DNA of 28,916 bases from Thermodesulfobacteriota bacterium. Lineage in GTDB: Bacteria; Desulfobacterota; Desulfobacteria; Desulfobacterales; C00003060. Positions 668 to 28,155 of the stretch are shown here, one piece after another (position 1 is the first letter of the stretch; each line of letters starts with the position of its first letter). A model generated the notes under the pieces. It was not told the DNA's origin and did not search any database. It worked only from the letters and a program-made list of their open reading frames with translations. The stretch is taken from the NCBI GenBank assembly GCA_034189385.1, contig JAXHVD010000033.1, positions 1 through 28,916 of the forward strand, written 5' to 3'. The translations under genes were made by a program, and so were the position numbers.

Positions 668-826
668 GATTAGTCTTGAATACCCGAAAAATACGGGTCT
701 TCCAAAAGGTTACCTTCCATAGCAAGATCGCTAATCGGCGTGATCAAACAAGTGGTGTAGATAGACAAGATCAACTTAACATTTCAGGAAGCCTTTGGCT
801 GGAAGGTGGCACCGCAAGATGTGAGG
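668..826 (+). repeat. Left copy of a ~160-bp block-conserved direct repeat (candidate att/recombination site or structured RNA)
   Basis: TCTTGAATACCCGAAAAATAC (674-694) is identical to 28003-28023. CAAAAGGTT, CATAGCA and a 51-nt block (38/51 identical) also match at a constant offset of 27329. Confidence 0.9.
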
Positions 827-845
827 TTAACGGAAATAGGCAGGG

Positions 846-1568
846 CTAAGATAATCCATTTTCTGAATATTGATCTCTTAGGCTATCCAGGTACAACTTT
901 GAACGCGCCTCCAAGCTTTTCCCCACAATCTTGAACAATGTGTTCAACCTCACTCCAAAGACCTTGTGACCATACCTATCACTGCAGTAGTAGGTCTCTA
1001 AATCGTCAACTCGGCCATGGTCTTCTATCATCATATCCTTATCGAATTGGGAAAACGCATCACTCTTACCGTCCCAATGAATTGTTGAGTGAACATGAGT
1101 GCCGTAACCGATAGTCAGGCCTTTTTCTGAGAGTTTAGCTCGCACGGCTTTAAACAACCTGCTGTCAAGTATGTAGCTATCAATGTTGTACCAAGATCCC
1201 TCGATTTTTACCTCCGTGTAGCAATGTGAGAGTTCTGCGGGAAGCAACCAATACCTATTGGGAGATACAGCGCCTTTCACGGTCTTTTTGGGTAATACGA
1301 CGAAATGACCATAGGCTTCTATGTCGGCTTCCCTAAAGAGTGTCCTCATCAGATCACTTTTTGGGTTACAGTGGCCTACCCCCAAGTCCAAGGTACTATC
1401 AGGTGTCGACAAATCGAAGTATCTGTTGAAACCAAATTTGATATTCTCCCGCACGTAGTCATGTAACGCGATGGCCCGTTCCCGTTCTGTAGCAAGCTCA
1501 GCAGTCACTCGCTCAGCTGTTTCTCGCACTCTGGACATGTGACACCCTTTTGGTTCTTCGAAAGCCAT
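846..1568 (-). CDS. Transglutaminase-like domain protein
   Basis: Cys-His-Asp pattern: GVGHCNPKS, HCYTEV and WYNID. Confidence 0.8.
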   Translation of the reverse strand: MAFEEPKGCHMSRVRETAERVTAELATERERAIALHDYVRENIKFGFNRYFDLSTPDSTLDLGVGHCNPKSDLMRTLFREADIEAYGHFVVLPKKTVKGAVSPNRYWLLPAELSHCYTEVKIEGSWYNIDSYILDSRLFKAVRAKLSEKGLTIGYGTHVHSTIHWDGKSDAFSQFDKDMMIEDHGRVDDLETYYCSDRYGHKVFGVRLNTLFKIVGKSLEARSKLYLDSLRDQYSENGLS

Positions 1569-1747
1569 AGGTCCGGTACTGGTGATCCTATGATGAAATC
1601 CAGCAGATTCTGTTTTTTGGAAAAGGACATAGATTTGAAAAGCGTACCATAGGATTTTGGACTTTCAAAACCGTTTGGTTTCATGCCTTAAGCCAGTCCA
1701 CAGCGGATGGGTGATTGTAATGGTCAAATGAAAACGGACACGAATTA

Positions 1748-2617
1748 TCAAGCAGCTTTCAGTTGTTTGGTTCGTTCAAACTCCATGGGGCTCAGATAGC
1801 CCAACGAGGAGTGGAGCCGATAGGCATTGTAGAACGTAATATACTCCAAGGACTCTCTTTTGGCGGCCTGCCTGGTGGCAGGTCTGCATGACAATAGATA
1901 TTCATGTTTTATGCTGTGGAAAAAGCGTTCGGTTGGAGCATTATCCCAGCAATCACCCTTTCGACTCATGCTCGGTATTATTTGAAACTGTTCCAGTTGT
2001 TTCTGGTAACGATCACAGGCGTACTGGATACCTCCGTCAGAGTGATGGATCAGCCCTGGCGGGGGCTTACGGCGCCAGTAAGCCATCATCAGGGCATCTA
2101 AAACGAGGTCGACCTTCATGTGCTTGTCTATGGCCCAGCCAACAACTTGGCGGGAGAAAAGATCCAGAATGACCGCCAGATATGACCAGCCCTCCAAAGT
2201 CCACAGGTAGGTTATGTCGGCTGTCCAGATCTTATTGGGAGCGTCTACCGTGAACTGACGGTTAACAATGTTGGCAGCTACACGATATGTATGATTGCTG
2301 TCAGTTGTTACCTTGTAGCGTCTCGGGGTTTTGGCCACCAGTTTAAGTTTGCGCATCAAGCTACGAACACGGTACCGTCCAATATCGTGTCCCTTGGATT
2401 TGAGGCTTTTGAGGACCCTACGAGATCCATAGGTTGCCTTGGATTCGTTGAAAATGGACCGAATGAGAGCCTCCAAGGCAATCTGTTCCGGGTCCTGAAT
2501 TGGGTTCCTGTAATGCCGACGATAATCATAAAAACCACTCCGGCTAACCTTCATCACCCTGCACAGCACGGTGACGGGATAGGCCTTCGTTTGCTGCCGG
2601 ATAAAGTCGAATCTCAC
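1748..2617 (-). CDS. IS3-family transposase OrfB (DDE)
   Basis: WTADITY, HHSDGGIQY and DNAPTERFF motifs. Overlaps the orfA stop (GTGA); a slippery A6G lies at ~2647-2653 on the minus strand. Confidence 0.95.
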   Translation of the reverse strand: MRFDFIRQQTKAYPVTVLCRVMKVSRSGFYDYRRHYRNPIQDPEQIALEALIRSIFNESKATYGSRRVLKSLKSKGHDIGRYRVRSLMRKLKLVAKTPRRYKVTTDSNHTYRVAANIVNRQFTVDAPNKIWTADITYLWTLEGWSYLAVILDLFSRQVVGWAIDKHMKVDLVLDALMMAYWRRKPPPGLIHHSDGGIQYACDRYQKQLEQFQIIPSMSRKGDCWDNAPTERFFHSIKHEYLLSCRPATRQAAKRESLEYITFYNAYRLHSSLGYLSPMEFERTKQLKAA

Positions 2618-2916
2618 TTCGACTCTTTCGCAAAGAAGGCCGCCGCCTTTTTTAAGATCTCACGCTCCATTTGTAGCCGCTGGTTTTCTTTCCTTAATCG
2701 TCGGTTCTCGGCTTCCAGCTCTTTGCGAGTCACCCCGCCTTCGGCAAGGTCCTCTTGGTCTCGACGATATTCACGCACCCAGCGGGAGATGTTGGATTGG
2801 TTGATACCGAGACGTCGGCCTGCTTCGTTGGCACTGTACCCCTGGTCGACTACCAGGCTGATAGCGTCTTGTTTGAATTCCTTTGTGTATTTTACCCGGT
2901 TTCGCTTTTCGTTCAT
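2614..2916 (-). CDS. IS3-family transposase OrfA (HTH)
   Basis: YTKEFKQDAI...ISRWV HTH and LRKENQRLQMEREILKKAAAFF tail. Start taken at MNEKRN. Confidence 0.92.
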   Translation of the reverse strand: MNEKRNRVKYTKEFKQDAISLVVDQGYSANEAGRRLGINQSNISRWVREYRRDQEDLAEGGVTRKELEAENRRLRKENQRLQMEREILKKAAAFFAKESK

Positions 2917-2988
2917 CGGACACCTCTTTTCTTCGTTGGCTGCTCTTACCACGGTGTCCGTTTCTTTTAAACCAGATCAGATTTTCAG

Positions 2989-3543
2989 TTAGTGGTGCGA
3001 AGGAGGCTTTTCCTCACTGCTGCATTGGTCAAGCATCTTGGCAACCTCGTCTATGAGCGAAGATGATGAAAGAATCTTCTGTGCTGCCGCATCAATCAAC
3101 GGTGAGGCGGCTGTGATTAACATCTCGCCACGCATTTCCTTTATGTTGTTCAGATATTCATTTGTGCGGTTTTTCATCTGCTCGGCGCTGTATTTTTGCG
3201 AATTGCAGTAATAGAACAGTCTGTCTTCTTCTACAAGTGACAACCTGCCGGTCATAGTTTCCATATATCGACATATTCCCTCCATGCTTCGGATGTTTTC
3301 AGAGGATAGCCTTATCAGGTGAGATTGAACGGATTCGTGAGCTGTCATGGAACTGGATAGCGTCCTTAAGTCCTCTCGCACCTGAGATAGTTCTCTCCTA
3401 ATCTCTCTAAACTCGGTGTTAAGGTGTTGGGCCTGTGGTTTGTCAACGCCGGTTATTGCTTTCCCTGGCTCAGTTCGTGAAGATGATGCGCTGGGCATCA
3501 GCGACAGAACTAACAATGACAACATAACTATTCTCTTTTTCAT
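2989..3543 (-). CDS. Hypothetical exported helical protein
   Basis: Signal peptide MKKRIVMLSLLVLSL after a G-rich RBS; coiled-coil-like central region. Confidence 0.65.
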   Translation of the reverse strand: MKKRIVMLSLLVLSLMPSASSSRTEPGKAITGVDKPQAQHLNTEFREIRRELSQVREDLRTLSSSMTAHESVQSHLIRLSSENIRSMEGICRYMETMTGRLSLVEEDRLFYYCNSQKYSAEQMKNRTNEYLNNIKEMRGEMLITAASPLIDAAAQKILSSSSLIDEVAKMLDQCSSEEKPPSHH

Positions 3544-4374
3544 GGCACCCCCCTCTGACTTCATGGTTAACATTCGGATATAACCATAGGCCCTTCCGCC
3601 CTGTCGAATGGCAAGGGCCCACCCCAGTCTTCAAAAACTGACAAGGGCGATTTTATTGGCCACATCTTGCCAAGATGACCCCTCAATAGGGCCACAGCCC
3701 ATGTTGAATTAACTATCAGGGGTTACAGTCAAACAAACCGTTTGATTTTATGCCATATTTCAAATGGAAATAGCCACGCGTCACTAGGAAGAAGTGGGCC
3801 TCCGGTGAGAGGCTATTGAGCACAAACCCAGAGGCCCTGACCCCCGTGACCGAGCTCAAAAGTCACCAAGCACGAGGATTCAGACAGGCGTCGGTCAGGT
3901 TCAGCTTATCCCATAGCATTGTCGAAGCGAATGTCAAGTTAGGAAGGGATCACGTTTCTGTAAAAAGGCAGGGAGGCTCAAGATTCCATGTGAATATCAA
4001 ACAAGATGATGCCGTTTAGGGGGTTGGCTTGAAGCAGTATCCTACCTTGAGCCAGTGCACAGCCCATAGCTGATTGGCAGTAAATACCCGTGGTTCAGCC
4101 TGACGGCAGTGCTGTGGAGCGAACATAATAGCCTTCTCATTTTCTTGGCTAGCTAACCCACAGCCCGCCCATGGTGGGTTAAGTCTACGCTCGCTCGTGG
4201 TATTCAATTTTCAACTCCCGCCCATTGAAATCTCGAACTTAACGTACTAAAAGATTTGATGTTAGTTGTTGCCTTTGGTTATACGCGTATGCTGGGAATC
4301 GCGCCGTTTTTGGACAGAGATTTGGGAATGTCTTGCGTCATTGCAAGCACCCAGTTTGTGGAGGGCATCCAATT

Positions 4375-7894: not shown

Positions 7895-8119
7895 CGCAAT
7901 CTCTCCATTCAAAATAGGCGGCAGGCGAAATGTTGGTAAGATTGAGTTTTTTTCAGATCTCCTGCCCCAGCCTCCCGCCGCAAAAGGGGGTCGGGGAAAT
8001 AGATCTGAATAGCATACCTGACAAATCTAGCCACCTCAAATAGTTGCCTAGCATAGCATTATCAAGACCGGGGCTGGGCCCCCGAGGAAGTTGATCTATA
8101 GCATATCCTGCATTCATGA

Positions 8120-8236: not shown

Positions 8237-8977
8237 TCATTTCTTTCTTTTGTCTTTTAAATAAATTGCCTTTGAGGGTCCATCGCCAACAGCTCTTTCT
8301 TCGACTTGGAATAGCTTTGTTGCTGATGCAAGTTCCCCCAACTTCTTGTAACCATAGTTTCGCGGATCAAACTCTGGTGCCTGCTTGGCAATGTTACTTC
8401 CCACCGCTGCAAGATGAGCCCAACCAGAATCGTCCGAAGATGCCTCAACAGCGTTTCTTAACAAATTAACGAGTTTCGTGTCTTTCTTAAGTCCGGTGGT
8501 TGTCTCGCGTCTTATCTTGTCACTATGGTCATCTTTGGAGCGCAGTACTTCAGTGAAAATGAACTTATCACACGCCGAAACGAATGCTTTAGGGGTTTTC
8601 TTCTCCCCGAATCCATATACAAGAAGACCGGCTTCCCTTATCCTTGATGCTAACTTGGTGAAATCACTATCGCTGGATACAATGCAAAAACCGTCAAATT
8701 TGTCTGTGTAAAGCAAGTCCATTGCGTCAATTATCAACGCACTGTCAGTTGCATTTTTCCCTGAAGTATATCCAAATTGCTGTATAGGCTGTATTGAATA
8801 CTGTAGAAGAACTTCCTTCCACCCTTTAAGGCCTGACAGCGTCCAGTCACCGTAAATCCTTTTTACATTGGCTGTCCCATACTTTGCGATCTCCGACAGG
8901 AGCCCGTCAACAATAGAAGGTTGGGCGTTGTCTGCATCTATCAATACGGCCAGTCTTTCAACTTTTTCGTCTGACAT
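8237..8977 (-). CDS. NYN (LabA/DUF88, PIN-like) domain protein with C-terminal OST-HTH/LOTUS domain; gene cassette
   Basis: LIDADN, GKNATD, IDAMD and SSDSDF motifs; C-terminal FDPRNYGYKKL. Confidence 0.92.
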   Translation of the reverse strand: MSDEKVERLAVLIDADNAQPSIVDGLLSEIAKYGTANVKRIYGDWTLSGLKGWKEVLLQYSIQPIQQFGYTSGKNATDSALIIDAMDLLYTDKFDGFCIVSSDSDFTKLASRIREAGLLVYGFGEKKTPKAFVSACDKFIFTEVLRSKDDHSDKIRRETTTGLKKDTKLVNLLRNAVEASSDDSGWAHLAAVGSNIAKQAPEFDPRNYGYKKLGELASATKLFQVEERAVGDGPSKAIYLKDKRKK

Positions 8978-9059: not shown

Positions 9060-9415
9060 GATATTTTTCCACTATCTAATCAGGACAGCCTCCACGGTCA
9101 AGGTTTGATAGCCTGCCCAGAGAACACCTCGGAAACGGTCCAGGCCGATGTTTGATTGCTTGCCATTATTTAGGTTATTGAAATCACACAGCTTTGCTAA
9201 GCATACCACAATCGATCCCATTGATCTCAATACAGCATCTCAGATGCTTTCGCCTTGACAGTCTGCCGTCAGATGCCATAGAGTCTTATCGACACACCAA
9301 GGAACCAGCCTGGGACCTTGATGATGTCCTCTACCTGCCCCACAGGTACTCTCACCTGTGGGGATTCTTTTTGGCTGGCCTTTAGTCGTGGGCGCCGTCG
9401 CTTCTTAACCCTTAT

Positions 9416-9595
9416 CTAGGTCTCCACCTTTGGCCGCTTGCGCTTAAGCTTCACGATCTCCTGGAAGAGTTCCTGTTTCGAGATTATCCCCTTTCGGTCA
9501 AGGAGATTGATCAGGGCTGCATTCTGATAAACCTCAGACAGGACCAGCTCTTTGAGATCCAATGTCTGCTGTTTTGGGTCAAGCTTTTTCCCCAT
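9416..9595 (-). CDS. Small hypothetical protein
   Basis: MGKKLDPK...ALINLLDRKGIISKQEL; the ATG lies 1 nt after the stop of the upstream small ORF. Confidence 0.6.
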   Translation of the reverse strand: MGKKLDPKQQTLDLKELVLSEVYQNAALINLLDRKGIISKQELFQEIVKLKRKRPKVET

Positions 9596-9596
9596 G

Positions 9597-9716
9597 TCAG
9601 TTATCTTCACGCTCTATTCTTGATCGGATCATATCTTGAAAAAGGGCAATGACGCCGCAGAAAATAAAGAAGGCGAAAGCACAGGTAATGGCGTAAAGAA
9701 TTTTCAGAATGATCAC
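9597..9716 (-). CDS. 39-aa membrane peptide (not in the ORF track)
   Basis: GAGGT RBS, GTG start, sequence MIILKILYAITCAFAFFIFCGVIALFQDMIRSRIEREDN, coupled to the next gene. Confidence 0.5.
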   Translation of the reverse strand: MIILKILYAITCAFAFFIFCGVIALFQDMIRSRIEREDN

Positions 9717-9796
9717 GGTTTACCTCACGTCGTTATTCCTGGGTCCAGGGGCAATCTTCTGAGCCTCACATGAGGTGTTCTGGCAATCACGCCAGT

Positions 9797-10633
9797 TCAA
9801 CCAGCCCATTCGCGAACCCAGGCCTCAAAGGTTGTTCCCTCTATTGAATTCTCTTCAGAATCTGGAAGTTCCCATAGAAAATCAAGCCCACTGCGGTTCT
9901 CCACTTCCTCAATCTTCACTAAGTGGTTTATGACATCCGATGACCTAGGGGTGTTTTGGTCCATGATGAAAGCTCCAACATGAATGCCACCAGATTCTTG
10001 GACAACAACGATCTTCCAGTAGCCACTGGGGACCTTGTGTGGTTCATCAGCTTTTGGAAGGGCAGGCATTGGCCTCTCGTACAAAGGGCCTGTCATTACC
10101 CAAACCTCTTCGTACTTCTTAACCAGCTGTCGAACCTTTGATTCAAGTCGCATCCAGGGCCCCTGATTAAGGTCCGACTTCTGTGGTGTGATGTTGCTGT
10201 AAAAGTTTACCTGCGAGGCGTAGCGTGAACCTTTAAAGGATGCCAACGGGGCCTGATGACCACGGTCATATCCTTTGTCTCTGTAGGCGTCCTTGTAATC
10301 CTCCGTGGCTTTGGGGGTGGCCTCTAATGTCTCAGCTGCATCAAGCCACGGGTCGCTTCGCCACTTCCGCTCAAGATCCAAGAGAGATGCCGTTTCGTGG
10401 CAAGTAAGCCGGTAGCATACCCAATCGGCGAGTTTGGTCTGGTCATTCGAACTAAGGGCGTAGAGGTCACGGATGATTAAATCGTTCGAGTCCGGAGCAC
10501 CAAGGGGATAGCCGTGGATGAAGTGCTTGCAATGAATTTCAGTCGGAAGCGCTGGTGGCTGAGCGATGGCTGTATTGAGAAACAATGCGCCAGAAGCCAT
10601 AATGAAACAAACAAAGAACAACCGAGGTTTCAT
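9797..10633 (-). CDS. Secreted DNA/RNA non-specific endonuclease (NucA/Serratia type)
   Basis: Signal peptide; DRGH active site; NITPQ...LNQGPWMRLE; VPSGYWKIV. Confidence 0.92.
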   Translation of the reverse strand: MKPRLFFVCFIMASGALFLNTAIAQPPALPTEIHCKHFIHGYPLGAPDSNDLIIRDLYALSSNDQTKLADWVCYRLTCHETASLLDLERKWRSDPWLDAAETLEATPKATEDYKDAYRDKGYDRGHQAPLASFKGSRYASQVNFYSNITPQKSDLNQGPWMRLESKVRQLVKKYEEVWVMTGPLYERPMPALPKADEPHKVPSGYWKIVVVQESGGIHVGAFIMDQNTPRSSDVINHLVKIEEVENRSGLDFLWELPDSEENSIEGTTFEAWVREWAG

Positions 10634-10661
10634 TCTTGCCTCCTCATTTTAGGCATGTGGA

Positions 10662-11033: not shown

Positions 11034-11236
11034 GAGGATGCTCTCCTCCTTTCCTGTGCTTGTTTTGCCTGCTAATGGGGTTAAAGACCGTTTTGTTCGG
11101 GTCACCATACATTCCTTTCGCTTTGCCGAAGGTCGCCGAATTAGTAGAAGCTTTCGGGCGCCAAGCCGAATTTGTGGAGTCATGCTCCAATATTACAGGT
11201 GCGCAACCTGCCTGCAAACGCAGGCCAATCCTTCAA

Positions 11237-11527: not shown

Positions 11528-11531
11528 ACAG

Positions 11532-11598
11532 GAAATAATATTTCTAGAAAAGAATATTTCTTGCTTGACAGATATGCCGTAGATATATATTATATCTA
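11532..11598 (+). promoter_or_regulatory. Sigma70 promoter with overlapping operator-like repeats
   Basis: TTGACA (11565-11570), 17 bp, TATTAT (11588-11593). Palindrome TAGATATA-N3-TATATCTA (11580-11598). AATATTTCT at 11537 and 11553. Confidence 0.75.
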
Positions 11599-11634
11599 GT
11601 AGATATTAACACCATAAGAAAGGAGGACTGCACT

Positions 11635-12276: not shown

Positions 12277-12279
12277 CTT

Positions 12280-17598: not shown

Positions 17599-17611
17599 CG
17601 CTGCCTCCTTT

Positions 17612-18184: not shown

Positions 18185-18203
18185 GGCTGATATTCACCTC
18201 CTT

Positions 18204-19238
18204 CTAGCTAATCGTGAGCATTTCGCCCTGGCGATTAAATGCGTTGATGAAGATCGTGATCTTGTCGGTCTCAAAGTGTTTCTCGGTATCCCCGTGTACC
18301 TCAACCGAATGGTTGAGCTCCTTTTTCGTCAGACCTTTGACCAGCAACGGGTTTCTTTTTTTCTTGTCCCACACAATGCCGTTCATGAAACCGCCGGCAA
18401 GGATCTGTGCCAGGTGGCCGTAGCGCAATGGCATGACCGGCTTGATCCTTTCAGCCATTCTCAGCGGAGTTGTCATCTCTTCAACCTGCGAGAAGACCCC
18501 GTGCTGTTCTATTTCCTTGGCAAGCTCTTCAGGGTTGATCACCTTGCTTGTGAAAATGAAGATTCCCTTTGAAGGTGCCAGAGGGACTTCGTAGACATGT
18601 GGGGGGTCTTCCGAAAGATACGGAACCACAGCCTGAAGCTGGCCGCACTGCTTCAGGTACTCGGAAATGCTATCATCCTTGTCAGGTCTTTTTTTTAGCA
18701 TGCCGAGGATGGCTAGCTGTTTGAAGGCCCTGTATTCAGCCTCCGGGAAGCGAAAGACGCTCAGCTTCTCGAACCGGTACGAGAGCATCCGAGCAATGTG
18801 TCCGTCCAGCCTGTTTTGAGGGATCAGGTAGACGAGGATCCCCCCCGGACAAAGGTAGGGCGTGCAATCTCTAAGGAAGGTTCTTTCGTAGCGTTCTGAT
18901 TTTGCGATCTCATCATCCCGCACAGCCCAGTCATAGGGCGGGTTAAGGTAGAGGGCACTGAATGAGTTGTGGCTGATCCTTGTGTTCTGGTAGTCTGTGA
19001 CAAGACACTTGGTGAGAACATCCTTTGCCTTGCTGCCCCGCTCAAGGTCGACCTCAATGCCGAAACTCTCAGCGTCCAGATGGCTACCTATCGCTCGAAC
19101 AGCAGTGCCTTCACCCGCGCAGGGGTCGAGAACCCTTATGAGTCCCTCGCGCTGACGTCTCAGGTACTTCTTTATGATAGGGACTACACCCTCTGGAGTT
19201 GGGTAGTATCCCATCTTTGCTTGTGCTGCTAATCTCAT
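18204..19238 (-). CDS. SAM-dependent amino-DNA methyltransferase (DUF6094-like)
   Basis: GYYPTP, motif I LDPCAGEG, motif IV NPPY. No cognate restriction endonuclease adjacent. Confidence 0.88.
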   Translation of the reverse strand: MRLAAQAKMGYYPTPEGVVPIIKKYLRRQREGLIRVLDPCAGEGTAVRAIGSHLDAESFGIEVDLERGSKAKDVLTKCLVTDYQNTRISHNSFSALYLNPPYDWAVRDDEIAKSERYERTFLRDCTPYLCPGGILVYLIPQNRLDGHIARMLSYRFEKLSVFRFPEAEYRAFKQLAILGMLKKRPDKDDSISEYLKQCGQLQAVVPYLSEDPPHVYEVPLAPSKGIFIFTSKVINPEELAKEIEQHGVFSQVEEMTTPLRMAERIKPVMPLRYGHLAQILAGGFMNGIVWDKKKRNPLLVKGLTKKELNHSVEVHGDTEKHFETDKITIFINAFNRQGEMLTIS

Positions 19239-19339
19239 TTCAGACTCCTTTCTTTCCATAAGAAAGGGGCCTCCTTTCAGATCTATTTCCTGTATAGAGT
19301 GATCGGAGGCCCTCTGTGTTTAAGGGTTATTGTGATTCG

Positions 19340-19852
19340 CTATGAACAAGAGGTAGGTTCTTCTCCACGCAGCAGCCTGGAAAAGCGGCTTGAGACATCT
19401 TTCAGCCATCCGCTATCGGCCATGCTGTGGTATCCGTCTCCAATGACGATGTGATCATGGAACTGCACATCAATGCTTGCAGCTGCGATTCCCACCTTGA
19501 TGGATATGGACTTATCTTCAGCAGACGGCTGGATGTGGCCGGAGGGGTGGTTATGAGCCATAATGAAGGCGCTGGCCTTCAGTTGAATTAGCCTCTTTAC
19601 AATCTCCCGAGGATATATTGATGAGGATGTGATGCTTCCGGAAAACAGGTTTTCGATGGCGAGCACCTTGTTCCGGGCATCAAGGAAAATGATGTAGACC
19701 TTTTCAATGTCGTCCTCCTCTGCAAAAACTGGTTTAAGAACATTGTACACCTCCTGAGAGTTTGATACTGATTGTCCTTTTGACGATTCCTTGACCATGG
19801 AGACAAAACGGCCGGACTTCAAAGCATCCCAGAATTCTGATTCGTTGGTCAT
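19340..19852 (-). CDS. RadC-like JAB domain protein
   Basis: YPREI, AHNHPSG...PSAED and DHIVIG motifs; AGGAGG RBS. Confidence 0.92.
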   Translation of the reverse strand: MTNESEFWDALKSGRFVSMVKESSKGQSVSNSQEVYNVLKPVFAEEDDIEKVYIIFLDARNKVLAIENLFSGSITSSSIYPREIVKRLIQLKASAFIMAHNHPSGHIQPSAEDKSISIKVGIAAASIDVQFHDHIVIGDGYHSMADSGWLKDVSSRFSRLLRGEEPTSCS

Positions 19853-19937
19853 AGGGGCCTCCTTTCGGCACAAAAAAGCCCCCCTGGAGAGTTCCAGAGA
19901 GGCTTTCTTGCTTGGATAGTTTATCAGTTTGTTTGTG

Positions 19938-20750
19938 CTAGTTCATGACTGGCTCGCACTCATTTCCGCTACTGACGGTTGCTCCTTTCAGTATCAGGTT
20001 CAGGACATTTTCCGCCTCTCCCAAGACTTTCAAGCAGGCCACATGCGGGGTGAGTTTCACCTCCTCTGCATATCTTTCGATGTATCTGAAGGAATTGCCT
20101 GTGGTATCGTTCGCCTGCCTTCCGACGAGCCTGCAAAGGGCCTGGGCCGATAACTCTGCCACTATTTCCTGGAGGGGCTCCTGGCCGCAGGTTAGCTTGC
20201 CTTTGATCCTTTCGTGCCCCGCGTGTGCCAGTTCGTGAAAGAAGGTCTTTTCTTCAGGACTGGCTAAAGCTATCTCCTGACGTTCAGGCGAATAGTATCC
20301 ACTGAACCTGTAGTTGCCAGGGATCGCTTTTACGGATATCCCCCATTCCTTTGCCTTGTCCAGAAGTGGCAGTTGCGGAAGTTCTATGTTTCTATAGTCC
20401 AGCTCTTTTCCTTCGGTGTCCTCGTACATGAATACCGGCGTTGACTTGAAATATCTCAAGACCTCCTTTTCTTCCCCGGTTTCATCGTCAGTCTCTTTCT
20501 TGAAACACGGAACAAGGATGTATATGGCCCTTGCCCCTTTCTTCACCCACCTGTTCACTTGTTTCCACTGGCGAAAACCTCTAGCGTCTGCCGTACCTGC
20601 GAGAAACATCAGGGTGCGGTTGGTAAATGACCACTTGCTGCTCGGGGTATCAGGCACAGGAAAACTGGCCATGGCCACAGCTTCAGGTATTTCACCTGAT
20701 TTGAACTTTTCAACTATCAAATCTAAAACCTGTTTGACTCTGTTATTCAT
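19938..20750 (-). CDS. ArdC-like antirestriction protein (ssDNA-binding domain plus zincin-like domain)
   Basis: WSFTN, GFRQWKQVNRWVKKG, HELAH and EIVAEL motifs. Confidence 0.8.
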   Translation of the reverse strand: MNNRVKQVLDLIVEKFKSGEIPEAVAMASFPVPDTPSSKWSFTNRTLMFLAGTADARGFRQWKQVNRWVKKGARAIYILVPCFKKETDDETGEEKEVLRYFKSTPVFMYEDTEGKELDYRNIELPQLPLLDKAKEWGISVKAIPGNYRFSGYYSPERQEIALASPEEKTFFHELAHAGHERIKGKLTCGQEPLQEIVAELSAQALCRLVGRQANDTTGNSFRYIERYAEEVKLTPHVACLKVLGEAENVLNLILKGATVSSGNECEPVMN

Positions 20751-20866
20751 TTCAACCCCCTCCATTTTTTTGGCTTTAGAAATACAAAAGCCCTTCTGTT
20801 AGGCCAGAGGGCTTTTGTGCAGTCTGTCTATGAGATTATGGGTTCTTGTGTGCTGGAAACTGCTGG

Positions 20867-21367
20867 TTAGAGGTATTCTTCGACCAGCGAGTAGTCGAAA
20901 TCCTCAATATCACAGTCTTGATTGTGCTTTTCCAATTCCTCTCTGCGTGCCGCAGACCCCTCTACAGGCTCAACACGATAGAGCTTCAAATGCCTGCCGA
21001 AGTCTTGCCTCATCTGTCCCAATTGAGATAAAGCCTCTGCTGGGTCATCATAGCCCAAGGGGTCATCTGGAGAGACGACCATGAATCCCAGCCTGTGTTT
21101 GGGGTTGCCGATAATGTGAATCGAGTCTCTTGTTTCCTTGGCAGCCTCGGCAATCAATGGTTCGTTTTCAGCATACTCGTCCTTTTCGTCTAAGAAATGC
21201 TTTGCATTGGCAATCATTCCATCAGCGTCGTAAAGGGCCGCATCATTGTGTTCAACATTCATGGCCTTGACATATTTTGACAGCGCCTGAATTGCCATGC
21301 TGGGATCATGGAAAAACACCACCTCTGCGATGATCCCTCTTGATACAGTAACTAAGACCTGGTTCAT
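20867..21367 (-). CDS. Acidic hypothetical protein
   Basis: 166-aa ORF with GAGGTG RBS, co-oriented in the gene run. Confidence 0.7.
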   Translation of the reverse strand: MNQVLVTVSRGIIAEVVFFHDPSMAIQALSKYVKAMNVEHNDAALYDADGMIANAKHFLDEKDEYAENEPLIAEAAKETRDSIHIIGNPKHRLGFMVVSPDDPLGYDDPAEALSQLGQMRQDFGRHLKLYRVEPVEGSAARREELEKHNQDCDIEDFDYSLVEEYL

Positions 21368-21428
21368 TTTTTCTCACCTCTCTCATTGGGGGTGAAGCCG
21401 CCCCAACTCTGCCAGGCGGCTTCACTGG

Positions 21429-21647
21429 CTATGATAGTTTTCCGTTTTGTCCATTTGAACCAAAGACGCATTGGTTGCAAAAGCTCCGGTCTCTACATGC
21501 GTCGCATACCAGTTTGGCGTCTGCGACCTGCCCAACATAATCAAATACATGTTCGATAGCTTGTGTCATAGGTATTTCAAGAGCCCAGGCGATTCGCCTG
21601 AGTGTACCACTATGCTTAAGGCTAAGTTCTGGCGTATATGCCATCAT
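21429..21647 (-). CDS. Small protein with a Cys cluster (CxxC...CxxC)
   Basis: AGGAGG RBS; C-terminal VCDACRDRSFCNQC. Confidence 0.7.
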   Translation of the reverse strand: MMAYTPELSLKHSGTLRRIAWALEIPMTQAIEHVFDYVGQVADAKLVCDACRDRSFCNQCVFGSNGQNGKLS

Positions 21648-21773
21648 CTACCTCCTTTCAAAAAAAGCAAAAGCCCGCCTGACCGAGACGGGCTATTTCA
21701 TGTTGTTGGTTCTTGTTTGCTCAGACTCTGGGAGCAGCTTGACCAACCACGAGGGTAGATTCGCGACTGACAA

Positions 21774-22067
21774 TCAGGGTAGCTTTCCCATGGCTTCGGT
21801 CGTATGGTCTCGGGCCGTTCTCTTTCGGCAGTGTTTGAGCAACTGGATTCCATTTTTGATGGCACTTATTGACTTGTTGAATTCACGTATCAGTAGCCTC
21901 CTTTTTCCAGGATCATCGGTTTTCTCGATACGGGATGCTGTGAAATGCGTCCCGAACATTGCAAGTGCGATGGTGTCCCTGAATTCATGAGTTGGTTTGG
22001 TCTGCTGGAGACAGTCCCGCAGTTCACCTCCTAGTGTTTTGAGTTCTTTTTGAAATGTTTCGCCCAT
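21774..22067 (-). CDS. Hypothetical protein
   Basis: AGGAGGTG RBS; 97-aa ORF. Confidence 0.65.
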   Translation of the reverse strand: MGETFQKELKTLGGELRDCLQQTKPTHEFRDTIALAMFGTHFTASRIEKTDDPGKRRLLIREFNKSISAIKNGIQLLKHCRKRTARDHTTEAMGKLP

Positions 22068-22160
22068 GACTTTTTCACCTCCTTTCTAAATAGAATGTGG
22101 CCTAAAGGCTGATGCAGTTAAGCCTGTGGTTAAGAAAATGACGGCTGTAGCTGTAGCTAC

Positions 22161-22187
22161 AAAAAAACCGTCTCCCGACGGAGACGG
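22161..22187 (-). terminator. Intrinsic terminator downstream of the HerA-like operon
   Basis: Perfect 8-bp stem CCGTCTCC/GGAGACGG followed by T7 on the minus strand. Confidence 0.75.
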
Positions 22188-22327
22188 CCTTACGGGTTGG
22201 CTCCAATGTTGCTGCGGTTGTCTTTTGCCTGAAGGTTTGTTTCTGGTGAGATGTCCCGGTGCGCCTTTTTCTATGAAGTGATCCGCATCCGGTACATTTT
22301 CCGGTTAGTATGAGGTAGGCTATATGA

Positions 22328-24262
22328 TCACAAAACGGGAGGATTGCTCAGGAAGTCTTTTGCAAAAACCACGCGGATGAGTTCCCTGTCAGGAACGATT
22401 AGCTCTCTTAGAACTTCCTTGATTCTGATTTCTGTCTCCCGGTTCGTGGTAACCATATATTTGAGGTCGGCTTTGTATCTGCCCAGCCTGGTGAGGTTTG
22501 CCTGGATATCAGATTTGCCGGTCTCCATTTGAATGGCCATTGTTCTTCCTACTGTTTCTACCACCAGGTCGATGTGATCTTTTTCCAAAAAGGTGAAGCC
22601 TTCTGCGCCCAAGTAGTGTTCCTTTATCTTTTCAAGATAGTATCTGTGCTCGAGGCCTCCGCGGCCTATTTGTACTGCCTTCTTTCCCAAGGCCTTTCTC
22701 GCTGCTAGCGTCAGCTCATAGAGCCGGTTGCCATCAATGGTAAGGGGCCTTATGAGTTGAAGAGACATGAGTTCTTCAATCACGCTATAGCCATGGGAAA
22801 TCGTAAGCCCCAGCTCTTTGAACCTTTTGACCAGGCCCAAGATGGGCCTCTGGGCGACGTGTTCAAGCATTATCCGGCCCAGGGGGGATAGTGTTTCACC
22901 CTTTTGAATACCGCAAATATTGCTGGTTTTGGGCGGAGCTATCACATTTGGGCTTGAATCCTTCAAATATCCTTCCATGTGCCTTTTTAGGTCATCATCG
23001 GTCACCAAACCCTTTTTCAGGGGAAAATTCGCAATGGACAGAAGGACGGGTTTGGCAAAACGATCGGAACGGCAAATGCACTGTCCCAGGGTCAGCATGG
23101 ATAGATATCTTTGCTCGTTTTTATCCAAGAGCATGGCATTTGATATGGCCTTTACGTCTTGATTGAGTGAAAGGGTAAGGGCGAATTTGGTGGAGAGGTT
23201 CCCCAGAGCACTCACTGACATTTTGCTCGGGTGCTGATCGATAATGATGATTGCTTCTCCCAGTTCACGGATCTCTCTCATGATCACATCGGCGATGTCT
23301 TCTTCTTGCCGTGTTTTCAAAAACAGGTGATGGGCCTCTTCGATGATCATAAAATGCTTCAAAACCTCCCGCTCGGGCTGCCTCATCCTGTAGTGGTAGA
23401 TCCACAAAAGCAGGCTTCCGATCACAAAGGCCTGGTCAGAGCCAGACAGCCCGTCCAGTTCAAGGATGACCTTTTTATTGAGCAGTTCTGGAATAGGATA
23501 TCCCGCTAGGCAGTTCACCATTTCCCCCAAGCCGGGATAGTTTATCGCGTTCAAGGTCCGTTTCACGCTGGCCCACCAGAGGAGCTCCCTGGCCTTCTTT
23601 TTCTGTTTTAGCACATTGTTCTGCATATCCTTAAATGTGCTCATGCCGGCACTTTCCATGAACACGTCATTGGCCCCGGGCCCAAGAAGGTAGACCTTTT
23701 CGATGATCTCCGAAAGCTGCTTGATCCAAACATATTCTTCCACTCCGGCAGGGCCTTGTTTCGGGTTGAAATAGAAGGGGACCACGTCATTTCTTCCCAC
23801 AGTGAAGACAAGAATTTCCTGGTCTTTGAAGTCAGGGTGTTTTAGGAGGTCGCGGTAGTTCCGCTTGTAGTCGAAGATCAGAAAGGGGTGGTTGTGTTTG
23901 CAAAGCTCTCTTAGAATCCTGATGGAAAGCGTCGTTTTTCCACTTCCCGTTTTTCCAAAGAGGCCCGTATGGCAAAGCCAGGAAGGCTGCTTCACACCAA
24001 AGAGCCCGAACGGTTTACCTCCAAACATGGCTTCACCAATGGGGTATTCTCCTTCAAGGAGGTTTCTTTCAGGGGGAGGAAGCAGTATGTTTTCCGTCTT
24101 AAGCCCCGGGACGTGTTTTGCGATCAAAAGGTCCATCATGTTTTCAATCTCTCTTCGCTTTCGGGGGTCTTTTTCTAAAATGTACCGGACGCGCAGGTAC
24201 TCCCACTGGGCCGGCGGAAGGACAGGCTTCAAGAGCTTCAGCTTTTCATCAATCCATTCCAT
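22328..24262 (-). CDS. HerA/FtsK-superfamily (DUF87-like) ATPase with C-terminal HTH-like and PD-(D/E)XK-like region
   Basis: Walker A GKTGSGKT, IFDYK, Walker B IIEEAH, REIRELG, IDQHP. C-terminal EHRY...IDLVV...QMETGKSD. Confidence 0.85.
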   Translation of the reverse strand: MEWIDEKLKLLKPVLPPAQWEYLRVRYILEKDPRKRREIENMMDLLIAKHVPGLKTENILLPPPERNLLEGEYPIGEAMFGGKPFGLFGVKQPSWLCHTGLFGKTGSGKTTLSIRILRELCKHNHPFLIFDYKRNYRDLLKHPDFKDQEILVFTVGRNDVVPFYFNPKQGPAGVEEYVWIKQLSEIIEKVYLLGPGANDVFMESAGMSTFKDMQNNVLKQKKKARELLWWASVKRTLNAINYPGLGEMVNCLAGYPIPELLNKKVILELDGLSGSDQAFVIGSLLLWIYHYRMRQPEREVLKHFMIIEEAHHLFLKTRQEEDIADVIMREIRELGEAIIIIDQHPSKMSVSALGNLSTKFALTLSLNQDVKAISNAMLLDKNEQRYLSMLTLGQCICRSDRFAKPVLLSIANFPLKKGLVTDDDLKRHMEGYLKDSSPNVIAPPKTSNICGIQKGETLSPLGRIMLEHVAQRPILGLVKRFKELGLTISHGYSVIEELMSLQLIRPLTIDGNRLYELTLAARKALGKKAVQIGRGGLEHRYYLEKIKEHYLGAEGFTFLEKDHIDLVVETVGRTMAIQMETGKSDIQANLTRLGRYKADLKYMVTTNRETEIRIKEVLRELIVPDRELIRVVFAKDFLSNPPVL

Positions 24263-24263
24263 T

Positions 24264-25013
24264 TTATGTCATGACAAAATCCCTTTTGCAGTACCCTCCG
24301 CATGTGCATGGATAGTCCTGTTCGTCGTGAGACACGGTCTTTTCACGCACTGACTTGATCAGGGTTCTCGCATAATCCAAGAGTTCGTCGTCCACACGGA
24401 TTGGCGCGGGGTCATCTGGAAATTTCACAAAATGGATTAAGATGGACTCAGGCACCTCGTTATATTTGTCCTGATACAACAGGGCATAAAGGGCAGCTTG
24501 TCTTAGGATGTCGTCTGTGATGTTTGCATATTTGGAGGTCTTGTAATCCACCAGTGCGACTTTGTCGTCCCATGTGTGAACCGCATCGATGATTCCCATT
24601 AGCCCAAGCGTTTTCGATACGATCTTTGTTTCTGAGAGATCAGGAGACGCCAGGTTGTTCCTGTAAAACCATTGGCTGAAATTAAAAATCATGAGTTCGC
24701 TGTCATCACGATAAAAGTCGATCTCCTGCCTTGTAAGGCCCAGGGAGTTCAGACTTCCCGCAGCCCCTATCCATTCCCTGTGAAATGTATTGAGAAGGTC
24801 TTGGCGGATCTTTGTAAGAGAGACTTGTGGCGCCGTTTTCGGGTAGTTTATGTGAAATTCATGGATGGCTTTGTGGACGATCCTGCCGCGGACAAGATGA
24901 ATGGATGGCTTTGTTTGAAGCCTTCTTATGTACCTGAGATAAAACTTTCGGGGGCACGAAAGATAGGTATTAATAGCTGTTGGGCTCAGTATTCGTTTTT
25001 CAATTTTGACCAC
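24264..25013 (-). CDS. PD-(D/E)XK nuclease, Cas4/AddB-like, with probable Fe-S ligands
   Basis: LSPTAINTYLSCPRKFYLRY, GRIVH, GIIDAV, VDYKT, QAALY; C-terminal CTCGGYC. Confidence 0.88.
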   Translation of the reverse strand: MVKIEKRILSPTAINTYLSCPRKFYLRYIRRLQTKPSIHLVRGRIVHKAIHEFHINYPKTAPQVSLTKIRQDLLNTFHREWIGAAGSLNSLGLTRQEIDFYRDDSELMIFNFSQWFYRNNLASPDLSETKIVSKTLGLMGIIDAVHTWDDKVALVDYKTSKYANITDDILRQAALYALLYQDKYNEVPESILIHFVKFPDDPAPIRVDDELLDYARTLIKSVREKTVSHDEQDYPCTCGGYCKRDFVMT

Positions 25014-25155
25014 CTCGGTCTGGTTTTCTTTTGTTCAATACGGAAACGAATGTCACGATCACGTGTTCGAGCTGCCAATCATCCATCATCATGGCGAAGC
25101 TAACTGGATCGCTGGCAAGTTTTTGTACCTCTTCCCTACTTACAAGACCTTTCAT
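25000..25155 (-). CDS. 51-aa protein (not in the ORF track)
   Basis: ATGA overlap with the upstream stop; reads MKGLVSREEVQKLASDPVSFAMMMDDWQLEHVIVTFVSVLNKRKPDRGGQN; overlaps the nuclease start. Confidence 0.6.
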   Translation of the reverse strand: MKGLVSREEVQKLASDPVSFAMMMDDWQLEHVIVTFVSVLNKRKPDRGGQN

Positions 25156-25679
25156 GCAAATTCCTCCGCTTGATTCATCAACATTGCTGCCTTCTGGTCT
25201 TCTTCGAGTTTCTCGATCAAAGTCTCTCTCAGTTCCTTCCGAAGGAAAGAGACGTCCCTAAAATAGTTTGCCATTTCCTTCCTTTTTTCTTGTTCGAGGC
25301 CAATGAGCTGCCGCTCAAGTTGGAGCCTTCGATTGTCAATCAGATCTCCGAGCTCGTAGATCAGATTTGTACACACACATTGGTCGAGGGAAATCCGATA
25401 AAGGTTTTTGTCTCTCAACTTGTATCTTTGGTACATTTCTGAAAAGAGCAGCCGGGCCTTGAATGAAATGATATCGCGTCTCTGGTTCATCAATTCTTCC
25501 AACCCGTACACCCCCCCCACATTGGAGTTATTCCCAAGCAAGGTGTCGCCATTATCTTGGTATCCATTTTGAGGATACAGATACTTGGGGTCAAATGGAG
25601 CGTAGAGAAGTGTTTTTGCTTGGGCATCATTTCGCTCCTTATTTGTTTTGAAAATCATCTTTTTGGCTCCAGTTTCCAT
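25152..25679 (-). CDS. Helical/coiled-coil hypothetical protein, first gene of the nuclease-ATPase operon
   Basis: 175-aa ORF; coiled coil RLQLERQLIGLEQEKRKE; coupled to downstream ORFs. Confidence 0.75.
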   Translation of the reverse strand: METGAKKMIFKTNKERNDAQAKTLLYAPFDPKYLYPQNGYQDNGDTLLGNNSNVGGVYGLEELMNQRRDIISFKARLLFSEMYQRYKLRDKNLYRISLDQCVCTNLIYELGDLIDNRRLQLERQLIGLEQEKRKEMANYFRDVSFLRKELRETLIEKLEEDQKAAMLMNQAEEFA

Positions 25680-25879
25680 ATTTTTACTACTAGAAAGTTG
25701 TCATCTTTTAAAAAACTTTGGGCCTCGAAAGGGTTTGCCGCTATCTAAGTGGTCGTGTTTCAGGAAGGGGAGGCAGGAAGAGCCCTTACTTTTCCCAGAA
25801 GTTGGCAGAGTTGTGTTTCCGAAAAGTATATATGACACCTGTGTCTCAGATTGTTTTTATGCTGATCGAGTCTCGTGGG

Positions 25880-26443
25880 ATGTATCGTCTACATAGATTG
25901 TCACTCATCATAATGGCAATCTTCCTTTACTCTGGTTGTTCCTGCGACCCTGTACCCACGGTCTGCAGATTTCACGAACCATTGAGTGAGTCTGGTTATG
26001 GGAACACCTGCTTGAACATCCACGGTGCTGTGGCAGGGGACATAATCCCTGGCGCGCAGGTCTATCTTTTCCAGCCTTCAAGCCTGAATTTGTCAGTCGT
26101 CTTGACTGAAATCAGGACGATGCCTGCGCTGGGGTGGCGGCCTGTAAACGAATCAGGGGCTTTTGAGTTTCATTGTCTCTCGCCAGGTGAGTACGTCTTT
26201 GTTATCCCCACAACGTCATATGATGGTTGGATAGGTTTCCCCCTGCCGTATGAGGTCGACTGTGAGAATCTCTCAGTTCGAATCGTCTTTCATGGTGGTG
26301 ATTATAAATACGCTGTCGGTGCGTTCGGGGTCATCGATTCCAGGGTAGAGTATGTTGAGAAATGCACTGGCTCGTCATGGGTCTGTAGGGACCTGATGGG
26401 CTCCCTGTACAGAGAATGTCGCAATAACTCTAGGCAACGGTGA
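25880..26443 (+). CDS. Cys-rich exported/lipoprotein-like protein with a beta-rich domain
   Basis: Signal-like MYRLHRLSLIIMAIFLYSGCSC; GAFEFHCLSPGEY resembles prealbumin-like/carboxypeptidase-regulatory folds. Start uncertain. Confidence 0.55.
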   Translation: MYRLHRLSLIIMAIFLYSGCSCDPVPTVCRFHEPLSESGYGNTCLNIHGAVAGDIIPGAQVYLFQPSSLNLSVVLTEIRTMPALGWRPVNESGAFEFHCLSPGEYVFVIPTTSYDGWIGFPLPYEVDCENLSVRIVFHGGDYKYAVGAFGVIDSRVEYVEKCTGSSWVCRDLMGSLYRECRNNSRQR

Positions 26444-26489
26444 CTGCTTTCCTTGAAATCTTCGACAAAAAATGGTTCTGGAAACAGTG

Positions 26490-26661
26490 TCCTAGACTGG
26501 AAAATGTCCAGTCTAGGAGTAAATGTCCTGTGGAAGGTGTAGTTGTTGTTTGTTGTATGTTGTCTATTAGTTATATATAGTTTCCATATAGAAAATAATA
26601 ATGAAAGAAAAAGAGGAGACAGGAAAAGGGAAAAGGGAAATTCCACAGGAAATCTCCCCCC
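26490..26661. other. Candidate replication origin: inverted ORB-like repeats flanking an AT-rich tract
   Basis: TCCTGTGGAA (26526-26535) and TTCCACAGGA (26641-26650) are a perfect inverted pair around an AT-rich tract that is T-rich then A-rich. A 12-bp perfect inverted repeat lies at 26490-26501 / 26507-26518. Confidence 0.6.
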
Positions 26662-26735
26662 ACATTTCGGTTCTCACCCAGGAGTGCTTACAAAGCATTA
26701 AATAGTACTGGCGCATCTGGAGGTAAAGGAAGAAA

Positions 26736-27995
26736 ATGTCTCCTAGAAAAGCATCCAAGCCAGACAGCACAGAATGTCTGATTGAAATGCTGCATGCTAC
26801 GAGACGCAAGCGCTCCTTGGTGATGAATCCAGACTATCTTGATGATGAAAAGCTTCCTGAAGAGGAGCGAACAGCTGTACTGAAAGAGATATTTAATCGG
26901 AATATTCGGGAAAAGCAGCTGAGCCGCATCATCTCTCACCTTACACCAGTGCTCGATGGTATTCACCCACCCTCTGCCCTGATTTTCGGCCCGACTGGTT
27001 CTGGGAAGACAGTTACTTTGATGCACGTGCTCTCTACTTTCAAGCGCGTGGCAAACAGCCACGGAGTCAGCTTTCGCTACGCCTATATAGACCTCACCTC
27101 TCCTAAAAGCTACTTTGGTGCCTTAAATGAGGTCGCCATTGCGCTGGACAGTACAAACAAGAAATATCGCAAAGGCATTCCTGTAGAGTATATGCAGGAC
27201 AGGATTGTGGATGCCATAAAGCAGGATAGTGGCTACGTCTGTTTCTTAATAGATGAAGCAGACAACATAAGACCTAACCCCGATTCCTTTCTTACCTTTC
27301 TTGGAAAAACACTTCCTCGTAAGGTGTCCTGCAGGCTCACAATGATCCTTCTTACAAACAAGCTGTACTGGGAAAAGAATCTTGATCCCCGAATCCTGAG
27401 TTTCCTTAAAAAAACAGACATTATCTTCGAGCCATACAATGCCCTGGACCTTCTGGAGATTCTCAAGTTGCGTGTCAAAAAGGCCCTCAACAAGAAGAAA
27501 GTGAAACCTGCGGCACTCAGAAAGGTGGCAGCTTACGCGTCCCGAGAGACAGGGGATGCCAGAAAGGCAGTGGAACTTCTGGCTAAAGCCGTCCGGGTGG
27601 CTGAGGAGACTTCCGGACATTTGACAGAGAAGGAAGTGGATGTTGCGGAAGATAGACTGGAAATCGACAAGACAGAAGAGCTGATTCGAGCACTGGCAAC
27701 CCAACAGCGGGTCGCCCTTGTTGCGTGCTACGCCATTTTGGCAAAAAACGTTTCAAGGGTGTCCACGGGACAGGTCTATCAGACCTACAGGCAACTCTGC
27801 GTGGAGGAGAAGCTCCGGCCCCTGACTCAAAGGCGGTTTAGTGACATCATTAGCTTTCTCGACCTATATGGGCTGATTAGCACGAGGATGGTTTCCAGGG
27901 GACGCTACGGTACTACGAGGGAAATATTGGTGTCGTTGCCTGCAGAGGTAGTCGAGGGGCTCTTAAAGCCAGGAACGGCTTTCCAAAATGGGTGA
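26736..27995 (+). CDS. cdc6: Orc1/Cdc6-family AAA+ replication initiator with C-terminal winged helix
   Basis: GPTGSGKT, FLIDEAD, LDPRILS, FEPYNALDLLEIL, GDARKAVELL; wHTH TGQVY...LTQRRFSDIISFLDLYGLI...SRGRYGTTREI. Confidence 0.92.
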   Translation: MSPRKASKPDSTECLIEMLHATRRKRSLVMNPDYLDDEKLPEEERTAVLKEIFNRNIREKQLSRIISHLTPVLDGIHPPSALIFGPTGSGKTVTLMHVLSTFKRVANSHGVSFRYAYIDLTSPKSYFGALNEVAIALDSTNKKYRKGIPVEYMQDRIVDAIKQDSGYVCFLIDEADNIRPNPDSFLTFLGKTLPRKVSCRLTMILLTNKLYWEKNLDPRILSFLKKTDIIFEPYNALDLLEILKLRVKKALNKKKVKPAALRKVAAYASRETGDARKAVELLAKAVRVAEETSGHLTEKEVDVAEDRLEIDKTEELIRALATQQRVALVACYAILAKNVSRVSTGQVYQTYRQLCVEEKLRPLTQRRFSDIISFLDLYGLISTRMVSRGRYGTTREILVSLPAEVVEGLLKPGTAFQNG

Positions 27996-27996
27996 A

Positions 27997-28155
27997 GATT
28001 GCTCTTGAATACCCGAAAAATACATCAGTTTCAAAAGGTTGGATCTCATAGCATTACCTAACACCCAGCGAAACCGTACGCCGGGCATGATCTGCAGAGC
28101 AGAGTTAACATCTCACGAAGTCCTGGACTGGCGGGCGCCACCACAACATGTGGGG
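27997..28155 (+). repeat. Right copy of the ~160-bp block-conserved direct repeat
   Basis: Matches 668-826 without gaps at offset 27329; begins 1 nt after the cdc6 stop. Confidence 0.9.

Follow-up and report, generated by a model that had tools for sequence, protein, structure and literature searches.

In integrons, a tyrosine recombinase lies beside an array of co-oriented, unrelated single-gene units that are separated by a repeated site at their 3' ends, and orphan arrays of this kind are known as clusters of attC sites lacking integron integrases (CALINs). Integrons use two types of site: attI, in which accessory binding sites stand next to a partly degenerate core, and attC, a hairpin with the ends RYYYAAC...GTTRRRY. 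A core with accessory motifs for a simple tyrosine recombinase, and a bend of the integration host factor (IHF) type between the binding sites, is also found in the TnpI/IRS of Tn4430 and in sites of the lambda attP type, which resolve or integrate one element. The RIB/BIME-1 repeats of Escherichia coli are mosaic, contain an IHF site, and lie at gene 3' ends. In the plasmid-borne dif modules of Acinetobacter, each pdif site pairs a binding site for XerC with one for XerD across a 6-bp spacer; modules of type C and type D take turns along the plasmid, their sites are inverted, and host enzymes are used (PMC13141974). Here we analyze a 28,916-nt stretch of DNA (the window), which is the whole of contig C27 (JAXHVD010000033.1) in the genome of a Thermodesulfobacteriota bacterium (GCA_034189385.1; 4.1 Mb in 64 contigs, hereafter G000) and in which a tyrosine recombinase gene is followed by a series of repeated sites.

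An initial annotation of the window had described two similar sites and read them as the ends of one 27.3-kb unit, with the integrase outside it. Our analysis confirms the repeat observation and supports its interpretation only in part; the bounding of one unit by the two copies is not supported. The 27.3 kb are a cassette array, composed of several cassettes and an unrelated 18.8-kb block with Cdc6, HerA, and ArdC genes that is lodged within it, and the repeats are probably the junctions of a gene-cassette system, neither an integron nor a pdif system, run by a dedicated small tyrosine recombinase. A literature search that did not extend to subscription journals returned no description of such a system, which is apparently unpublished.

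The gapless alignment of the two sites at an offset of 27329 was reproduced, with 44 of 57 positions identical over 668-724, 14 of 51 in the 51-nt spacer, and 38 of 51 over 776-826; AGGCAGGGC follows both copies, starting at 838 and 28170. Each copy also lies 3' of a plus-strand stop codon (integrase, 593; cdc6, 27995) and faces the end of a convergent gene. Training of a 58-nt matrix on 34 copies, all taken from other contigs, gave scores of 70.2 bits at 668 and 48.7 bits at 27997, far beyond chance (maximum of 6.1 bits when the window was shuffled five times). These are not the only copies, however, since the same matrix finds three more on the plus strand between them, at 1632, 3982, and 8002 (29.2 bits; the other two scores are in Table 1), and a left half is also present at 9159-9207. 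Nor is the spacer free sequence of constant length, as had been proposed: spacer A recurs at 13 other places in the genome (80-95%) and spacer B at five (79-82%). Because each version recurs elsewhere, the site copies are mosaics of conserved modules, and the spacer exists as two conserved alleles, I at copy 668 and II at copy 27997.

BLAST combined with an iterated profile gave 48 matches in the genome. A genome-wide matrix trained on 37 G000 copies gave 44 matches on 23 contigs and none in two shuffled genomes; the presence of the site as judged by this matrix is partly circular, its orientation is not. All but one of the 44 matches (43/44) lie outside open reading frames (ORFs) of at least 130 aa, neighboring pairs within 25 kb are always co-oriented (20/20), and where the next ORF is no more than 1.5 kb away (35 cases), it is convergent in 27. 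Occurrence at many loci, which the initial annotation had held to speak against its reading, is therefore borne out as to number, yet the copies are intergenic, co-oriented, and placed at the ends of cargo genes. Among the ORFs beside the sites (136 of 167 scanned) are PKD, Kelch, FG-GAP, cadherin-like, PEP-CTERM, and TPR proteins and S8 and C25 peptidases; these genes include ones for large secreted or surface proteins. A BLAST search with the window site in 20 related genomes gave no match, and the site family becomes visible only with a profile. An exact-pattern scan of metagenome contigs yielded five short loci with the same modules in a different order and one recombinase, and viral contigs yielded three loci, one of them close.

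Sites distal to a recombinase gene have a common order of elements. The left part consists of CTTGCCA, ~10 nt, TATC, ~21 nt, and a central dyad GATA-N9-TATC, and the right part of 18-19 nt with an A-tract, a GATA or IHF-like stretch, 10-11 nt, ATAGCAG, and N-TATC; the consensus of the central dyad is GATH-N9-TAYC, with symmetric arms. We read the full junction as a composite of ~100 bp with several putative recombinase half-sites of the GATA/TATC type in fixed phase. A spacing of ~92 nt from the left core to the right core was seen in 36 of the 82 distal sites but in 0 of 33 recombinase-proximal ones, where the left core is found upstream of the start codon of the recombinase instead, so the recombinase gene is nested at the central dyad. 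The integrase of the window is thus not simply outside the unit, but nested inside the left junction. In G000, the left core is at the plain spacing in 10 of 37 copies and the right core is recognizable in 29 of 37; some copies have 95 bp of filler sequence at the central dyad. To the right of the core, this lineage has additional modules of 41-47 bp, which account for what had been described as an N51 spacer plus 51 nt. An IHF-like match with an upstream A-tract is present at junctions 1, 4, and 5 (at most two mismatches to the IHF consensus), and many relatives have TGATA where these junctions have the IHF-like stretch.

Folding of eight strands as DNA gave z-scores of +1.0 to -2.3 and no common structure, so the junction looks like a double-stranded protein-binding site. 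A structured RNA was ruled out by this lack of a shared fold and by the absence of Rfam matches at the sites; the only Rfam match in the window is weak (E 0.89) and lies elsewhere. A sigma-54 promoter reading of TGGCA was rejected as well for the G186 copies, which, read by eye, have no -12 box at the right distance, although the sigma-54 pattern does fit a few recombinase upstream regions and may hold there. The proposal of a multi-site nucleoprotein recombination site tied to the integrase remains the best reading, in view of the phased dyads, the IHF-like linker, the breakpoints at the cores described below, and the occurrence of the same site next to the integrase in many genomes.

The recombinase gene is truncated by the contig start. 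Contig C10, which overlaps the window by 54 nt, appears to carry both its 5' part, put out of frame by an A9 run, and the left half of junction 1. The enzyme belongs to a family of at least 5516 proteins, and relatives of the window integrase are mostly from Desulfobacterota; among 301 genomes of the same order, it occurs in 65, with up to six matches per genome. R142, K165, H224, R227, H251, and Y260 are invariant in 35 homologues of 249-286 aa, which have no arm-binding domain. The IntDes subgroup of Deltaproteobacteria differs from the window recombinase in having an arm-binding domain and altered catalytic residues (PMC8138268). The best family match is archaeal XerA (NF040815; 118-126 bits, cut-off 220), and the best structure-sequence matches are PDB 4a8e and 5hxy (E 5.7e-19), with no IntI structure among the six PDB matches. 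Among integron-integrase models, TIGR02249 is matched with 52-62 bits against a cut-off of 265, and only over profile positions 16-180 of 315 (the N-terminal half), and NF011946 with 29-42 bits against 435. The architecture, with a simple core-binding and a catalytic domain, is likewise that of XerA. Unlike archaeal XerA, however, this recombinase scores below the family cut-off and is multicopy, patchy in distribution, and often frameshifted or broken, and it is not a housekeeping dimer resolvase. A search of 72,556 plasmids gave no match at E 1e-20.

The A9 run on C10 causes a frameshift, and this is a recurrent feature. After exclusion of 12 loci without a usable start and 10 duplicates from a survey of 109, one extra base together with an A7-A10 run at codons 19-21 was found in 49 of the remaining 87 loci, whereas 25 are in frame without a stop, 23 of these without the A-run, and 13 are otherwise broken or mis-started. 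The conserved run suggests that programmed slippage is likely. At least five more pieces of recombinase genes, some deleted or frameshifted, lie on G000 contigs C12, C20, C36, C52, and C10; the C36 copy encodes an identical protein over residues 85-196 but is followed by a different site allele. A subgroup of recombinases (L048, L057, L060, L047) has another conserved downstream sequence without ATAGCAG, and possibly another site specificity.

The site keeps a fixed position relative to the recombinase gene. In the first 300 nt after the recombinase stop codon at 92 distinct loci, 26 of 35 ATAGCA occurrences fall at 80-140 nt; the motif follows the recombinase in 11 of 29 cases, versus 0-2 of 28-29 in control windows. 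A cross-genome model trained on 28 recombinase-proximal sites, none of them from G000, matched 20 places in G000, 16 of which are known copies of the repeat. Distal copies found with this model within 10 kb of a recombinase are on the same strand in 29 of 32 cases, and shuffled sequences gave none at 10 bits or more. A second round brought the number of distinct sites to 77, none inside an ORF of at least 120 aa, and the nearest ORF on the right-hand side has minus-strand orientation in 58 of 65 cases, compared with a background of 467/729 (64%). In G186, which with 42 matches overall has the highest count of any genome, arrays of alternating sites and genes extend over 20-35 kb with the recombinase in the middle; the arrays of G186 and G251 are on contigs of 0.7-5.2 Mb.

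Breakpoints between copies coincide with the cores. The six paralogous recombinase units of G186 are 75-94% identical in nucleotide sequence; among the 14 pairs listed, the similarity extends to the final base of ATAGCAG in 9 and 3-4 nt beyond it in the other five. A comparison of 80 distal sites gave 73 shared segments, of which 27 stop between +5 and +9 of the right core and three begin at core position 0 and run rightward; the 7-bp core is where left-shared and right-shared segments overlap. Further breaks occur at the left core and the central dyad (-138 to -85, -95 to -46). On G000 contigs C34 and C41, a 1.6-kb cassette of 97-99% identity begins and terminates within dyad cores. Of 28 segment ends inside G000 sites, 23 fall in dyad windows, which make up ~44% of the site, although the pairs are not independent. 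The stretch 835-1475 of the window is 95.6% identical to C6, where it stands beside a different site allele. Contigs from other sequencing runs depart from the window at 677, 718, 767, and 9165, the last in contigs of two other runs; these may simply be other copies.

In the mechanism that we propose, the junctions stand in direct repeat and the cargo genes between them lie on the opposite strand with their own terminators. The recombinase would cut like cores of two junctions, mostly the right core, and thereby excise a circle carrying one or more genes and one junction, which could reinsert at any other junction; one-way arrays and mosaic junctions would be the outcome. IHF would bend the linker. 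The recombinase gene is itself a passenger nested at the central dyad and would be throttled in many genomes by a +1 A-run that needs slippage. In its widest form, to which we give an equal chance of being right or wrong, this would be a third bacterial cassette platform alongside integrons and pdif modules, combining a XerA-like enzyme, a slippage switch, and composite junctions having a central dyad and two unlike, outward-facing cores, and swapping single genes, itself, and replicon-like blocks such as the 18.8-kb Cdc6 block, possibly by double crossover at unlike cores, as a natural form of cassette exchange.

Several observations weigh against a recombinase-driven cassette system. The allele at the window seems to be of the out-of-frame type, and the join to C10 rests on 54 nt. 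Sites and recombinase are loosely coupled across genomes: a site match is present in 33 of 65 genomes with the recombinase versus 26 of 80 without a strong recombinase match, and at least five matches in 13/65 versus 8/80, in a census of mostly fragmented genomes with at most 75 or 61 candidates scored per genome and a site model partly trained on recombinase-bearing genomes. Three of five site-rich negative genomes do hold recombinase gene fragments, but G131 and G080 have none, and about half of the recombinase loci lack a site recognizable with this model. The contigs of four runs contain no joint between junctions 1 and 4 (window 1-10000; 24 of 251 loose ends). Breakpoints occur at three or more dyads rather than one, and the central-dyad spacers differ between copies, which a strictly homology-dependent exchange leaves unexplained. 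In part, finally, the stop of conservation at the core follows from the motif ending there.

Homology between recombinase copies begins at CTTGCCA and ends at ATAGCAG, which would also suit a mobile unit of ~1.06 kb, made up of left core, recombinase, and right core and resembling an insertion sequence (IS), of which the 100-bp junctions would be gene-less derivatives similar to MITEs (miniature transposable elements with inverted repeats). Cargo would then travel in the adjoining DNA together with one element, in the manner of IS26-type translocatable units. The two cores form imperfect inverted repeats, the 5-6 copies per genome are scattered, and the A-run points to recoding of the kind typical of IS transposases. 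Free insertion, however, predicts both orientations and hits in genes, whereas 20 of 20 neighboring pairs are co-oriented and none of the 77 sites lies in an ORF. The right-hand flanks, moreover, are common to copies from exactly the core onward, so the flank travels with the gene. We therefore regard the IS-like unit as unlikely.

Slimmer still is the chance that the sites are BIME/RIB-like mosaic repeats, or shuffled promoter-terminator modules with an IHF site and regulator boxes, that spread by homologous recombination, host XerC/D, or an IS200-type nuclease and whose link to the recombinase is historical. The mosaic modules, the IHF-like stretch, and the position at gene 3' ends would all be expected of such repeats, sites do occur in genomes without a detected recombinase, and IS200-like genes lie near some copies. 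Unlike RIB/BIME-1, however, these sites lack REP palindromes and any consistent hairpin in the eight strands folded, are confined to accessory regions on 23 contigs, are strictly co-oriented, and have a fixed tyrosine-recombinase link, keeping their position after the recombinase even in distant families. TGGCA lacks a -12 box in the G186 copies read, and the dyad GATH-N9-TAYC is one base longer than the dif layout. A dif pattern occurs at five places in G000, none at a site copy; the best dif-like sequence, on the reverse strand of C62 near position 4687 from the end, is unrelated to the junctions.

It is very improbable that 668 and 27997 represent attL and attR of a single 27.3-kb unit, be it an island or a giant cassette, that is excised in trans: both copies are intact and directly repeated with a common ATAGCA core, and their recombination is possible as one of many events, but three copies and a half-site lie between them, the genome holds 44 matches, their extensions are different alleles, none of four cdc6 relatives has a site after cdc6, and there is no site match in the 55 kb around the related element of G146. 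A tRNA-anchored island was rejected, as no tRNA was found in the window.

From left to right, the window contains the recombinase, junction 1, a transglutaminase-like gene, junction 2, an IS3 element, a 194-aa ORF, junction 3, antiporter and LysR genes, junction 4, an NYN gene, the orphan left half-junction, the 18.8-kb block, and junction 5. The block encodes an endonuclease, an SNF2 helicase, a DUF6094 methyltransferase, RadC, ArdC, a HerA-like ATPase, a PD-(D/E)XK nuclease, and Cdc6/Orc1 (26736-27995), the last of archaeal type and above the cut-off of TIGR02928. Such a Cdc6 is present in 5 of the 301 genomes, namely the host and 4 of the 300 others, at 69-73% identity; among plasmids, only haloarchaeal homologues with 26-30% identity were found. 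In G146, six of the block genes are part of an element with a relaxase, in partial synteny, and the orientation of cdc6 relative to herA is opposite to that in the window. An AT-rich stretch just upstream of cdc6, present here and in G146, is a candidate origin. At 27960-27995, Cdc6 is ~9 residues longer at its C terminus than its relatives, and the cdc6 stop codon overlaps the left arm of junction 5, which has no left core 42 nt upstream and no left half. The succession of left half, insert, and central dyad plus right half is that seen at the recombinase gene, and the block may thus have entered at a central dyad. Whether it entered the dyad of a single junction, whose halves are now at 9159 and 27997, is about an even call, because the left half belongs to a shorter variant and the spacers are not the same.

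The junctions compare with integrons in their tyrosine recombinase, co-oriented unrelated units, and repeated 3'-end sites, and orphan arrays occur here too, as do putative accessory binding sites beside a partly degenerate core, which resemble attI. They differ in several respects: the recombinase has 278 aa and is far below IntI-family cut-offs; the sites are not hairpins (no attC-specific model was run); instead of separate attI and attC sites there is a single type; the recombinase gene is flanked by sites on either side and nested in one of them; and the cargo retains an upstream region and a terminator of its own and may reach several kb. With pdif modules (PMC13141974), they have in common that accessory modules are split by Xer-type double-stranded dyads and shuffled via sites with matching spacers, but here the sites are ~100-bp composites, are all in direct repeat, and occur on large contigs, and the array contains a single recombinase dedicated to it. 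XerC/XerD arms around a 6-bp spacer, inverted alternating sites, and Rep_3/OrfX plasmids are features of pdif systems that this system lacks. In TnpI/IRS and lambda attP a single element is served, whereas here the sites number in the tens and stand between unrelated genes.

If the recombinase acts on the junctions, sulfate-reducing bacteria of sediments have an integron-like way of collecting and reordering accessory genes, and integron-finding tools would miss such arrays. The site model lends itself to a direct test, as it comprises a single small enzyme and a site of 100 bp and predicts a 7-bp crossover. A recombinase that has one subunit and acts on sites with two unlike cores each could also be used as a tool for cassette exchange.

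Table 1. Positions of the features discussed in the text, in nucleotides of the window.
Feature	Positions	Strand	Remarks
Recombinase fragment, C-terminal 196 aa of a 278-aa simple tyrosine recombinase, XerA-like	3..593	+	R-K-H-R-H-Y intact
Terminator-like hairpin	608..636	+	3' of recombinase gene; z -5.86
Junction 1 (left site of the initial annotation), central dyad GATT-N9-TACC	668..684	+	
Junction 1, linker with A-tract and IHF-like site (700-712)	685..712	+	At most two mismatches to IHF consensus
Junction 1, right core ATAGCA(A)	719..725	+	Main predicted crossover point
Junction 1, lineage-specific extension of 41-47-bp modules	726..846	+	Modules bounded by further dyads (near 760, 806); first module is allele I; terminal hairpin decayed
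Cargo: transglutaminase-like gene	846..1568	-	
Junction 2	1632..1689	+	Decayed copy, 18.4 bits
IS3-family element	1713..2979	-	Not part of the system
Cargo: 194-aa ORF	2989..3573	-	No Pfam match
Junction 3	3982..4039	+	Decayed copy, 14.9 bits
Junction 4, full-length type	7961..8105	+	Left core 7961-7967, central dyad 8002-8018, right core 8053-8059; further ATAGCA at 8098
Cargo: NYN/OST-HTH gene	8237..8977	-	Between right core of junction 4 and left core at 9159
Orphan left half-junction	9159..9207	+	Core CTTGCCA 9159-9165, dyad 9191-9207
18.8-kb Cdc6 block	9208..27996	.	No site copy inside at 6 bits or more
Junction 5 (right site of the initial annotation), central dyad	27997..28013	+	Left arm overlaps cdc6 stop
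Junction 5, IHF-like site and right core	28029..28054	+	IHF-like site 28029-28041; right core ATAGCA(T) 28048-28054
Junction 5, extension	28055..28194	+	Allele II module, further dyads; ends in terminator hairpin 28169-28194 of convergent gene (z -3.40)
Cargo: ORF with weak PA-IL-like lectin match	28220..28915	-	5' end off contig

The IS3 element is missing from a related contig of run X2, which joins 1712 directly to 2980. In three other genomes, attC-like hairpins recognized by eye directly follow the right core (L041 in G143, L032 in G035, and L046 in G029), which is how insertions of integron cassettes at the right-arm GTTA would look. At L153:6379 onward in G186, a sequence resembling the 3' end of a group II intron starts ~30 nt right of the core, and the twin site L154:18841 is without it. 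Two further families of repeated upstream regions are represented in the window at 3717-3946 and 9108-9205; elsewhere in G000 they precede junctions, and the former carries a TTGACA-like box facing away from the site. The segment 10662-11183 encodes a small protein that is rich in lysine, matches the AbiEi antitoxin HTH weakly, and has five paralogues in G000.

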